Shown in pieces: positions 1,317-1,934 of a stretch of DNA of 43,675 bases. Source of the DNA: an uncultured Candidatus Saccharibacteria bacterium (GTDB lineage Bacteria; Patescibacteriota; Minisyncoccia; Phycocordibacterales; UBA6065); assembly GCA_964627275.1 (NCBI GenBank), contig CAZVHT010000036.1, forward strand, positions 1 through 43,675, in the 5' to 3' direction. Within the stretch, counting starts at the first letter, position 1. Each line of letters opens with the position of its first letter. The translations under genes and the position numbers were made by a program. The notes beneath the pieces were generated by a model, which did no database searches, was not told the origin of the DNA, and saw nothing but the letters and a program-made list of their open reading frames with translations.

Positions 1317-1368
1317 GAAATGCTGGCGATAAGTAGGTTGTTGGACGATTTCAATGTGCCAACTCTTC

Positions 1369-1435
1369 CTGCCTTTTGAGCCGATAGGTTCTTGATTTTC
1401 GAATCATGGCTTGGCTCTCTAGGCAGACCAATTTC
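1369..1435 (+). repeat. hairpin module A1
   Basis: CTGCCTTTTGAGCC-(about 30 nt)-GGCTCTCTAGGCAGACCAATTTC. CTGCCT (1369-1374) pairs with AGGCAG (1421-1426), and GAGCC (1378-1382) pairs with GGCTC (1413-1417). Homologous to A2. Confidence 0.85.
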
Positions 1436-1464
1436 TCAATTTGACCAAACCTTTGGGTTAGGTC

Positions 1465-1518
1465 CGGTAGAGGGTCGAAAACAGCCCTGTTTACGAAGCG
1501 CGCGATGACCCTCTACCG
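1465..1518 (+). other. perfect 12-bp hairpin between modules A1 and A2
   Basis: CGGTAGAGGGTC (1465-1476) is the exact reverse complement of GACCCTCTACCG (1507-1518). The loop is 30 nt. Confidence 0.85.
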
Positions 1519-1533
1519 CAGTTCTTTGATTTT

Positions 1534-1601
1534 CTGCCTTTTGAGTCGAAGCGGCTCTTGTAATTCGTCTACCGGCCTGGCTCTTTAGGCAGACCAATTT
1601 C
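1534..1601 (+). repeat. hairpin module A2
   Basis: CTGCCTTTTGAGTC-(about 31 nt)-GGCTCTTTAGGCAGACCAATTTC. It has the same flanking and stem sequences as A1. GAGTC/GGCTC keeps pairing through a G-U wobble. The interior differs from A1. Confidence 0.85.
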
Positions 1602-1670
1602 CTGTTTGTTGTGGTCGATGGCAATGGTGTTGTATAAAAAAGTTCATGACCTTTCAAATAGGAATCCTCT

Positions 1671-1735
1671 CCTCATGCGGTACGGACGAGTTGCGGTCTG
1701 TTTTTACGATACGCCTATTATCTCTCCGCATGAGG
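1671..1735 (+). other. perfect 10-bp hairpin in the non-coding leader
   Basis: CCTCATGCGG (1671-1680) pairs with CCGCATGAGG (1726-1735). The loop contains a TTTACGAT motif copy. Confidence 0.8.
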
Positions 1736-1934
1736 TTTCCTTTAAAGCTCATTTGAAAAAGTGAGTTTCAAAGGGAATTAGATTCCTTCGGTATTGTCGA
1801 CTTAATCTTTGTTTACGATTCGGTTATTGATCATACCGTAGCTCTTTGTTACTTTCATGTCCGAGGCTTTTAGCTGAGGACGAAACCAAAACCCGTCTTG
1901 CTCCGAAAGGTGCTAGACAAACCCAAAAAAAACC

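Follow-up and report, generated by a model that had tools for sequence, protein, structure and literature searches.

What is encoded by the hairpin-dense region that precedes the gene for a 449-amino-acid (aa) protein is the question raised by this stretch of DNA, the 43,675-nucleotide (nt) contig CAZVHT010000036.1 of an uncultured Candidatus Saccharibacteria bacterium, referred to here in its whole length as the window. The original prediction had read the region as a candidate bridge or guide RNA for an adjacent IS110-like gene, possibly of a new architecture. Our analysis indicated that positions 1288-3380 very probably form one stem-loop-type TIGR-Tas locus (TIGR, tandem interspaced guide RNA) on the core chromosome of a Patescibacteria (candidate phyla radiation, CPR) bacterium, and the TIGR-Tas identity of the locus is well supported. 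Unit architecture, recurrence, covariation, spacer hypervariability, protein family and synteny were established directly for this locus. The guide-RNA part of the prediction was right in that the region holds guide modules and the gene is distantly related to IS110; with seven to eight equivalent units, it is not a bridge RNA or seekRNA. Nor is this kind of guide RNA new, as stem-loop TIGR arrays with CPR TasR proteins were already described by Faure et al. (2025, PMC12045711) and Xu et al. (2026, bioRxiv 10.64898/2026.09.09.750476), and the locus is a fresh example of a kind of system first reported in 2025.

The layout from 5' to 3' is a promoter-like site, seven guide RNA (tigRNA) units at 1322-1838, tasR, one further unit and a terminator. 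This arrangement is best explained as a stem-loop TIGR array and a CPR-clade TasR that would be carried on one transcript, framed by the following features:

1288-1316, + strand: promoter-like site by sequence, with TTGACA at 1288-1293, a 17-nt spacer, TATAAG, and TG at -15/-14; putative function.
1935-3284, + strand: tasR, encoding a TIGR-associated protein of 449 aa, CPR clade.
3343-3380, + strand: intrinsic terminator, a stem of 12 base pairs (bp), 8 of them G-C, followed by a T run.

The candidate extended -10 box that had been proposed at 1308-1316 (TGTTATAAG) is present and lies 17 nt past a perfect TTGACA; it was absent from our consensus-scan list because the scan rule demands T at position 6 of the -10 hexamer. 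The interval between the end of alaS and the 449-aa open reading frame (ORF) proved ORF-free in practice, as predicted, with only mechanical ORFs of 52-73 aa overlapping it. Folding of the region on the + strand gave -208.7 kcal/mol (z = -5.3 against shuffles), compared with z = -3.4 for the - strand.

Each unit follows one loop plan, in which a stem closes a loop that reads CGA (box C), a 9-nt spacer A, UG (box D), a loop of 3-8 nt, CGA, a 9-nt spacer B and UG. Seven units were read upstream of tasR (U1, U2, U3, U4, U4b, U5 and U6) and one downstream (U7), with a small linker hairpin among them:

1322-1363, + strand: U1; stem GCUGG/CCAAC with one mismatch; CGA 1327-1329; spacer A TAAGTAGGT (1330-1338); UG; loop TTGGA; CGA 1346-1348; spacer B TTTCAATG (1349-1356) followed by UG 1357-1358 in an 8-nt reading, or TTTCAATGT (1349-1357) in a 9-nt reading.
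1368-1427, + strand: U2 (module A1); outer stem CUGCCU 1369-1374 / AGGCAG 1421-1426, inner stem GAGC/GCUC; CGA 1382-1384; spacer A TAGGTTCT (1385-1392, 8 nt); UG; loop ATTTT; CGA 1400-1402; spacer B ATCATGGCT (1403-1411); UG 1412-1413.
1443-1464, + strand: small linker hairpin without boxes, GACCAAACC-UUUG-GGUUAGGUC, from the minimum-free-energy fold.
1465-1518, + strand: U3; 11-bp stem plus the box C:box D pair C1476:G1507; spacer A AAACAGCCC (1479-1487); loop TTTA; spacer B AGCGCGCGA (1497-1505).
1534-1593, + strand: U4 (module A2); outer stem 1534-1539/1587-1592; CGA 1547-1549; spacer A AGCGGCTCT (1550-1558); UG; loop TAATT; CGU 1566-1568; spacer B CTACCGGCC (1569-1577); UG 1578-1579.
1597-1665, + strand: U4b, a probable but tentative unit; outer stem AUUUCCUGUUUG/CAAAUAGGAAU, from sequence and fold; CGA 1616-1618; spacer A TGGCAATGG (1619-1627); UG; loop TTGTA; degenerate box C UAA 1635-1637; spacer B AAAAGTTCA (1638-1646); UG 1647-1648.
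1666-1735, + strand: U5; stem CCUCAUGCGG 1671-1680 / CCGCAUGAGG 1726-1735; CGA 1687-1689; spacer A GTTGCGGTC (1690-1698); UG; loop TTTTTA; CGA 1707-1709; spacer B TACGCCTAT (1710-1718); second box D UA.
1789-1838, + strand: U6; stem CGGUAU/AUACCG; CGA 1798-1800; spacer A CTTAATCTT (1801-1809); UG; loop TTTA; CGA 1816-1818; spacer B TTCGGTTAT (1819-1827); UG 1828-1829.
3296-3339, + strand: U7, 3' of tasR, with CUUUU directly 5' of its stem GGGAGA/UCUCUC; UGA 3302-3304; spacer A CCGAAAAAA (3305-3313); UG; loop TTTA; CGA 3320-3322; spacer B TCGTATTCA (3323-3331); UG 3332-3333.

Read through, U3 is CGGTAGAGGGT-CGA-AAACAGCCC-TG-TTTA-CGA-AGCGCGCGA-TG-ACCCTCTACCG. The modules named A1 and A2 in the original prediction are paralogous units of one type, with the double stem CUGCCU/AGGCAG and GAGC/GCUC. 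Their shared arms lie where they had been placed: the 5' arm (1366-1384 against 1531-1549) is 89% identical, the 3' part (1387-1435 against 1553-1601) 78%, and the 23-nt 3' arm GGCTCTYTAGGCAGACCAATTTC occurs exactly twice in the window, with 0 copies expected. The G-U wobble of A2 (GAGTC/GGCTC) reads as described, and the two perfect hairpins, of 12 bp (1465-1476/1507-1518) and 10 bp (1671-1680/1726-1735), are both present. The interiors of A1 and A2 diverge as stated, with the nuance that they are not wholly unrelated, the spacers being about 50% identical in register, against about 93% for the scaffolds.

Whether this plan is a property of a family was examined in 80 genome loci with homologues, all from Patescibacteria-type metagenome-assembled genomes, and 4 loci obtained by exact-protein look-up, two of which were the same sequence, leaving 83 distinct loci. 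A search by nhmmer with the 638-nt region retrieved the closest relatives only (L081, L002, L003 and L084), and a box/stem pattern was adopted because the primary sequence was too divergent for nhmmer; lengths of the upstream ORF-free gap in the 80 loci, taken from mechanical ORFs, were too noisy for use. Across the 83 loci and the first 8 kb of the window, the core pattern without a stem demand had 148 matches on the gene strand and 19 on the opposite one; once an adjacent stem of 5 bp or more was demanded, the counts were 94 against 1, with 0 matches in 5 shuffles. The flanks of matches found by the pattern only paired at 75-91% over the first six positions, compared with 32-53% on the control strand.

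The stems also covary. In a gapless alignment of 43 units picked without a stem criterion, 81% of the cells were paired, against 57% with shuffled partners and 36-43% with slid partners; the covariation score was 0.655 against 0.21, exceeded in 0 of 500 shuffles, and 220 cells were changed on both sides, against 83. Pairs varying on both sides made up 12 of 13 in the outer stem and 2 of 3 in the inner loop, where the two adjacent pairs covary (UA/CG). The geometry of a box C cytosine paired with a box D guanine fits as well, with C1476:G1507 extending the stem of U3 and a G-C pair closing the inner loop, in columns that are invariant and fixed by the search pattern.

From this alignment we built a covariance model (R1), which gave 487 matches at E up to 1 in the related loci. 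Of the top 300, 299 shared the strand of tas; they came from at least 56 of the 83 loci and clustered directly up- and downstream of tas, placing a comparable region around the homologous ORFs; the sole match opposite tas (L034, 3776-3834, - strand) may be a palindromic or inverted unit. In the whole-window search, R1 recovered U3 with 24.7 bits (E 3.4e-4) and U6 with 18.3 bits (E 0.016). It also matched U1 at 1315-1370 (12.2 bits, E 0.031), U7 at 3290-3345 (8.5 bits) and U4 at 1535-1591 (7.4 bits). No convincing unit was found elsewhere in the window by the box/stem pattern or R1; the bare box pattern without a stem was unspecific there (strict, 3 against 0.4 expected; loose, 11 against 6.9 expected). 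Existing RNA-family models added nothing, as Rfam gave no relevant match in positions 1-5000 at E up to 10 and none above gathering thresholds in the whole window.

The closest comparison was provided by L081, whose TasR is 67% identical and whose array holds the same module types 5' of the gene. Its unit at 3459 is the homologue of U1, three of its four A-type paralogues matched the CGA-N9-TG-loop-CGA-N9-TG search (the fourth, at about 6025-6095, was read from the sequence), and U5 has three homologous copies there and another in L083, with stem kept and spacers unrelated. Units homologous to U7 come after tasR in L081 and close each of its cassettes. Three such ORF-less cassettes were seen 3' of its tasR (5170-6250), each with a promoter-like site, 3-4 tigRNA units and a strong terminator. 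One L081 unit, with spacers TCGAAGGGT and ATGAATGCT, is exactly duplicated at 3459 and 5539, while other paralogous units of that locus keep the scaffold and carry unrelated spacers.

The spacers themselves are hypervariable. Among 218 spacers, 214 were distinct, the sole repeats being duplicated units inside one locus, and base composition was near uniform at all nine positions. Between homologous units of the A, U5 and U7 types in the window and L081, the scaffolds were 69-88% identical and the spacers 25-26%, which is the random level.

These results bear on an alternative in which the region is a structured 5' untranslated region or a set of repeated extragenic hairpins with loops that are unconstrained and guide nothing. 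Loops without a detectable target, and a conserved hairpin outside the units (P1, described below) that suggests some cis-regulatory structure, would be compatible with it. Unconstrained loops would differ in length, yet 9 + 9 nt, framed by CGA and UG at four positions, are fixed in hundreds of units of distant genomes. Units are also found 3' of the gene, and in cassettes that have no ORF but do have a promoter-like site and a terminator of their own. This alternative retains practically no credibility.

The protein encoded next to the array pointed in the same direction as the units. TasR comprises an N-terminal RuvC-like domain (predicted inactive), followed by a coiled coil and by a Nop-like RNA-binding domain into which a beta-sheet module is inserted. 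The NCBIfam model NF052498 (TIGR_Tas_endo) matched residues 178-428 with 124.5 bits (cut-off 100). A single-sequence search of the PDB returned 9MTY_A as its sole match, from the TaTasR-tigRNA-DNA complex of Faure et al. (2025, PMC12045711), and a family-profile search gave E 2.2e-21 for TasR 9MTY against E 0.53 for IS621. With an AlphaFold2 (AF2) model (predicted local distance difference test, pLDDT, 88.9; predicted template modelling score, pTM, 0.82), Foldseek placed 9MTY_B and 9MTY_A at the top, followed by IS621 and ISCro4 (E ~1e-8), TasH and, weakly, the box C/D protein Nop5 (3NMU, E 0.05). BLASTP against one CPR Nop domain in Data S1 of Faure et al. 2025 gave 34% identity (E 4e-50), and the family motifs were found in that data set, which aligns Nop domains from this CPR family. 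The protein falls within the CPR clade of TasR, whose members are reported to carry a dead RuvC domain and to repress transcription under RNA guidance (Faure et al. 2025; Xu et al. 2026). As a separate observation, almost all family members end in -AA or -AAA after a disordered tail (3255-3284 in the window; pLDDT <50 at residues 439-449), an ending shared by the CPR sequences in Data S1; such an ending is similar to that of an ssrA-type degradation tag, and TasR turnover might be controlled through it.

Some of this evidence could also be read as an IS110/IS1111-type insertion sequence with a long bridge RNA or seekRNA at its 5' non-coding end, the loops of which would guide recombination. 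Weak Pfam matches (DEDD_Tnp_IS110, 24.8 bits against 29, profile positions 50-148, and Transposase_20), the Foldseek matches to IS621 and ISCro4, and a structured RNA 5' of the gene, as in IS110 elements, all fit that reading. However, the IS110 models of NCBIfam remained under their cut-offs (NF033542, 53.5 of 140 bits; NF051857, 28.6 of 180 bits) while the Tas model passed, and the profile search favored TasR over IS621. Family members have R, C, V or A at the position of the first RuvC aspartate, and there is no conserved serine where HMMER aligns the ESGSS segment of IS621, which holds catalytic Ser241. The units are seven to eight equivalent dual-spacer modules instead of two distinct loops, and the complementarity proposed for their interiors was not found, with no loop matching the flanks, the locus ends or any other part of the window outside the array.

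Genomic position spoke against mobility as well. In L083, a TasR homologue (62% protein identity) lies between alaS (70%) and the same downstream gene (37%), and because of this synteny the locus was taken to be vertically inherited at a fixed site rather than a hopping insertion sequence; the window and L083 do not have the same unit types, or equal numbers of units. No second copy was found in the window, and the listed homologues were mostly on one contig each. The insertion-sequence reading is largely refuted by the family models, the unit plan, the lack of end complementarity and the synteny, and we consider it extremely improbable.

With the stem-loop TIGR-Tas reading preferred, it must be asked whether the system would cut DNA. 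An active TIGR-TasR nuclease defending the cell by cutting invading DNA at 18-bp sites, as the dual-repeat TaTasR does, would share the protein superfamily and the guide plan; hypervariable spacers look like an immune repertoire, D149 at the position of the IS110 'DxxD...A' helix is nearly invariant, and further acidic residues are invariant. TaTasR, however, requires D11 on the first strand. In the window protein the first RuvC strand (residues 10-14) ends G-I-R14, and by an equivalence drawn from secondary-structure order, not superposition, that position is R, C, V or A in 31 aligned homologues and never acidic. The fourth strand, VVAMA-LGG, likewise lacks an acidic residue, with M or A at the position. 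In CsTasR, another member of this CPR clade, the two positions are R8 and V126, and the protein does not cleave DNA (Xu et al. 2026, 10.64898/2026.09.09.750476). Nuclease activity has likely been lost in this TasR, as judged from its sequence, and an active nuclease is very improbable.

Guides for RNA modification were a further alternative: box C/D-like RNAs that pair with ribosomal RNA (rRNA) or transfer RNA, their protein recruiting a modifying enzyme. In a speculation of Faure et al. (2025, PMC12045711), the CPR clade is an intermediate stage on the path to small nucleolar ribonucleoproteins. The Nop-like domain, a RuvC-like domain that is presumably inactive and the box-framed twin guides parallel Nop5 small ribonucleoproteins (sRNPs), which Foldseek weakly retrieved. 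Exact antisense matches to Escherichia coli 16S, 23S and 5S rRNA were found for 0 of the 218 spacers, compared with 3-7 for shuffled spacers, and one-mismatch antisense matches showed no excess (93 against 89-106); the test is weak because E. coli rRNA was used, not CPR rRNA. Sense matches (9 against 3-7 shuffled) were judged not significant. Spacers were not common to different genomes, as guides to conserved rRNA sites would be; the boxes, CGA and UG, are not the kink-turn (k-turn) sequences RUGAUGA and CUGA, and related dead TasRs bind DNA and repress transcription. This role for the array is very improbable.

By analogy with the characterised relatives, from which we infer transcription, processing, DNA binding, repression and nuclease loss for this locus, the following mechanism was considered. 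The precursor RNA would be cut near U-rich or CUU sequences at the stem bases, as suggested by homology with TaTasR, PateTasR and CsTasR, and a TasR dimer would bind each unit through its pseudo-symmetric box C/D pairs. The two spacers would then pair with opposite strands of an 18-bp DNA site, which on one strand reads as spacer A and then spacer B in reverse complement; for U3, one strand of the predicted duplex would be AAACAGCCC joined to TCGCGCGCT. The complex would bind DNA and block transcription; binding without cutting is expected because the RuvC-like domain appears to lack the first catalytic aspartate (R14) and the acidic residue of the fourth strand. The locus most likely acts as an RNA-guided DNA-binding repressor.

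This proposal has precedents in the literature. Faure et al. (2025, PMC12045711) showed the two spacers to pair with different DNA strands, A with one and B with the other, described a second, stem-loop type of array, and found that the CPR TasR clade with inactive RuvC goes with stem arrays. Xu et al. (2026, 10.64898/2026.09.09.750476) annotated 2,559 stem-loop arrays (locus set 20,096) and solved the structures of two stem-loop TasR complexes, with the box C cytosine paired to the guanine of box D. In the same study, tigRNAs were found on both sides of tas with a CUU motif at processing boundaries, stem-loop clades lacked the C-terminal Y/H processing loop, and dead TasR and TasA repressed transcription in E. 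coli; the authors stated that natural targets cannot yet be assigned.

Several observations weigh against the proposed reading. Window units carry imperfect boxes (UGA, CGU, UAA, a UA box D) or an 8-nt spacer, and such units score weakly with R1, which was built from units with 8-nt loops; the lower scores of the window units were attributed to their inter-spacer loops of 4-6 nt. The homologue of U4b in L003 (3656-3740) has CAA at both box C positions, and, given this and the UAA of U4b, some unit types may accept other triplets as box C or drift toward them. Enrichment of CUU at stem bases was modest, 2-5 times background at a few positions, which is suggestive but not proof. The loss of nuclease activity was argued from strand positions, the N-terminal domain alone had no significant PDB sequence match, and the family keeps E50, D52, D101 and D112 invariant and D149 nearly so. 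Target searches gave no support: with a geometry worked out from the TaTasR oligonucleotides (on one strand, A and then B in reverse complement), no 18-bp site with up to 2 mismatches was found in the window outside the array, the sole such hit lying inside U7. At up to 4 mismatches there were 31 sites, slightly over the shuffled-spacer range of 8-22, of which 19 came from the low-complexity U7, whose best hits overlap U7 itself. When self-targets were sought in either guide geometry, allowing gaps of 0-2 nt, no locus had an excess over wrong-geometry controls. A scan of IMG/VR viral contigs with the 18-mers of U3, U4 and U5 returned 2, 5 (three from one virus) and 1 matches, which is at chance level, as an 18-mer is expected to match by chance; 6 of the 8 contigs have 60-65% GC and the other two 48-53%.

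The leader of tasR contains further elements, the first two of them conserved among relatives:

1736-1777, + strand: box-less hairpin P1, in the gene-proximal leader just 5' of the last upstream unit.
1840-1847, + strand: AGCUCUUU motif directly 3' of the last upstream unit, a candidate CUU processing site.
1848-1934, + strand: rest of the tasR leader, with small hairpins and an A-rich stretch ahead of the ATG.

P1 is kept in 8 loci with compensatory changes at 5 of its 15 pairs, and AGCUCUUU stands at the same position in all 8 loci compared (the window, L001, L002, L003, L005, L081, L082 and L083). The 3' arm of P1 (GGGAA) overlaps a mini-hairpin, GGAAU-UAG-AUUCC (1773-1787), and the two may be alternative structures because their arms overlap; in L082, a full unit occupies the position of the mini-hairpin. 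The fixed chromosomal site and the recognisable scaffolds, set against spacers at the random level of identity, allow a speculative reading that we hold to be unlikely: spacers in CPR TIGR arrays may be replaced in place by a dedicated mechanism, and P1 and AGCUCUUU would then serve array processing or tasR autoregulation. If true, each lineage would keep a private set of fast-changing DNA-binding guides, for example against phages of CPR cells or directed at host genes.

The surroundings of the locus are core chromosome, as the window also holds rpsD, rpoA, dnaK, dnaJ, hisS, an Asp/Asn-tRNA ligase gene, gltX and cysS. Its two immediate neighbours are as follows:

13-1296: alaS, the upstream neighbour, with the Pfam domains tRNA-synt_2c and tRNA_SAD.
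3384-4565: gene for a 393-aa protein without a Pfam match, downstream of the locus and syntenic in L083 (37% identity).

The 393-aa protein starts with ...DIGSSSVGAG..., which is reminiscent of the phosphate-binding motif of actin-like ATPases. The GC content of the tasR ORF is 0.54-0.59, against 0.41-0.47 in the neighbouring genes and the array, and this high value occurs despite the synteny of the locus with a distant relative.

Our findings explain a flagged region by a mechanism published only in 2025-2026 and remove a tempting reading as a new bridge RNA. The locus is a clean natural example of a putative single transcription unit, with promoter, seven guides, tasR, one guide and terminator. 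Because it is a core-chromosome locus with a syntenic relative, it could be used to study how stem-loop TIGR arrays gain and change spacers and what their natural targets are, questions that the locus alone answers in neither case.

Compared with known systems, the window locus, known here from sequence alone, matches the published description of CPR stem-loop TIGR/TasR systems feature by feature. [quoted passage not shown] It differs from them in that box C is CGA, compared with CUU in PateTasR, in that the protein has 449 aa (CsTasR 547 aa, PateTasR 329 aa) and is only distantly related in sequence, and in that two of the units, A1 and A2, are built on a double stem that includes an internal loop. 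The dual-repeat TaTasR (9MTY) is the best match in sequence and fold, and a similar 18-bp target on both strands would be expected; unlike TaTasR arrays, the window array has no conserved edge and loop repeats, variable covarying stems take the place of the edge repeats, the units measure about 45-70 nt instead of 36 nt, and the RuvC domain is presumably inactive. With the IS110/IS621 bridge RNA and IS1111 seekRNA systems it has in common a distant protein homology (RuvC-like plus Nop-like/Transposase_20), a guide RNA beside the gene and guide segments in stem-closed loops, but it lacks recombinase hallmarks and donor or target complementarity, carries many equivalent units rather than one target and one donor loop, and is syntenic, single-copy and not mobile. 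Like the box C/D sRNPs (Nop5-fibrillarin-L7Ae), it combines two guides per RNA, framed by C/D-type boxes, with a Nop-domain protein, expected to be dimeric, whose N-terminal RuvC-like domain is presumably dead; unlike them, it has no k-turn boxes, no rRNA complementarity detected against E. coli rRNA and no methyltransferase partner identified, and homologues of its protein act on DNA.

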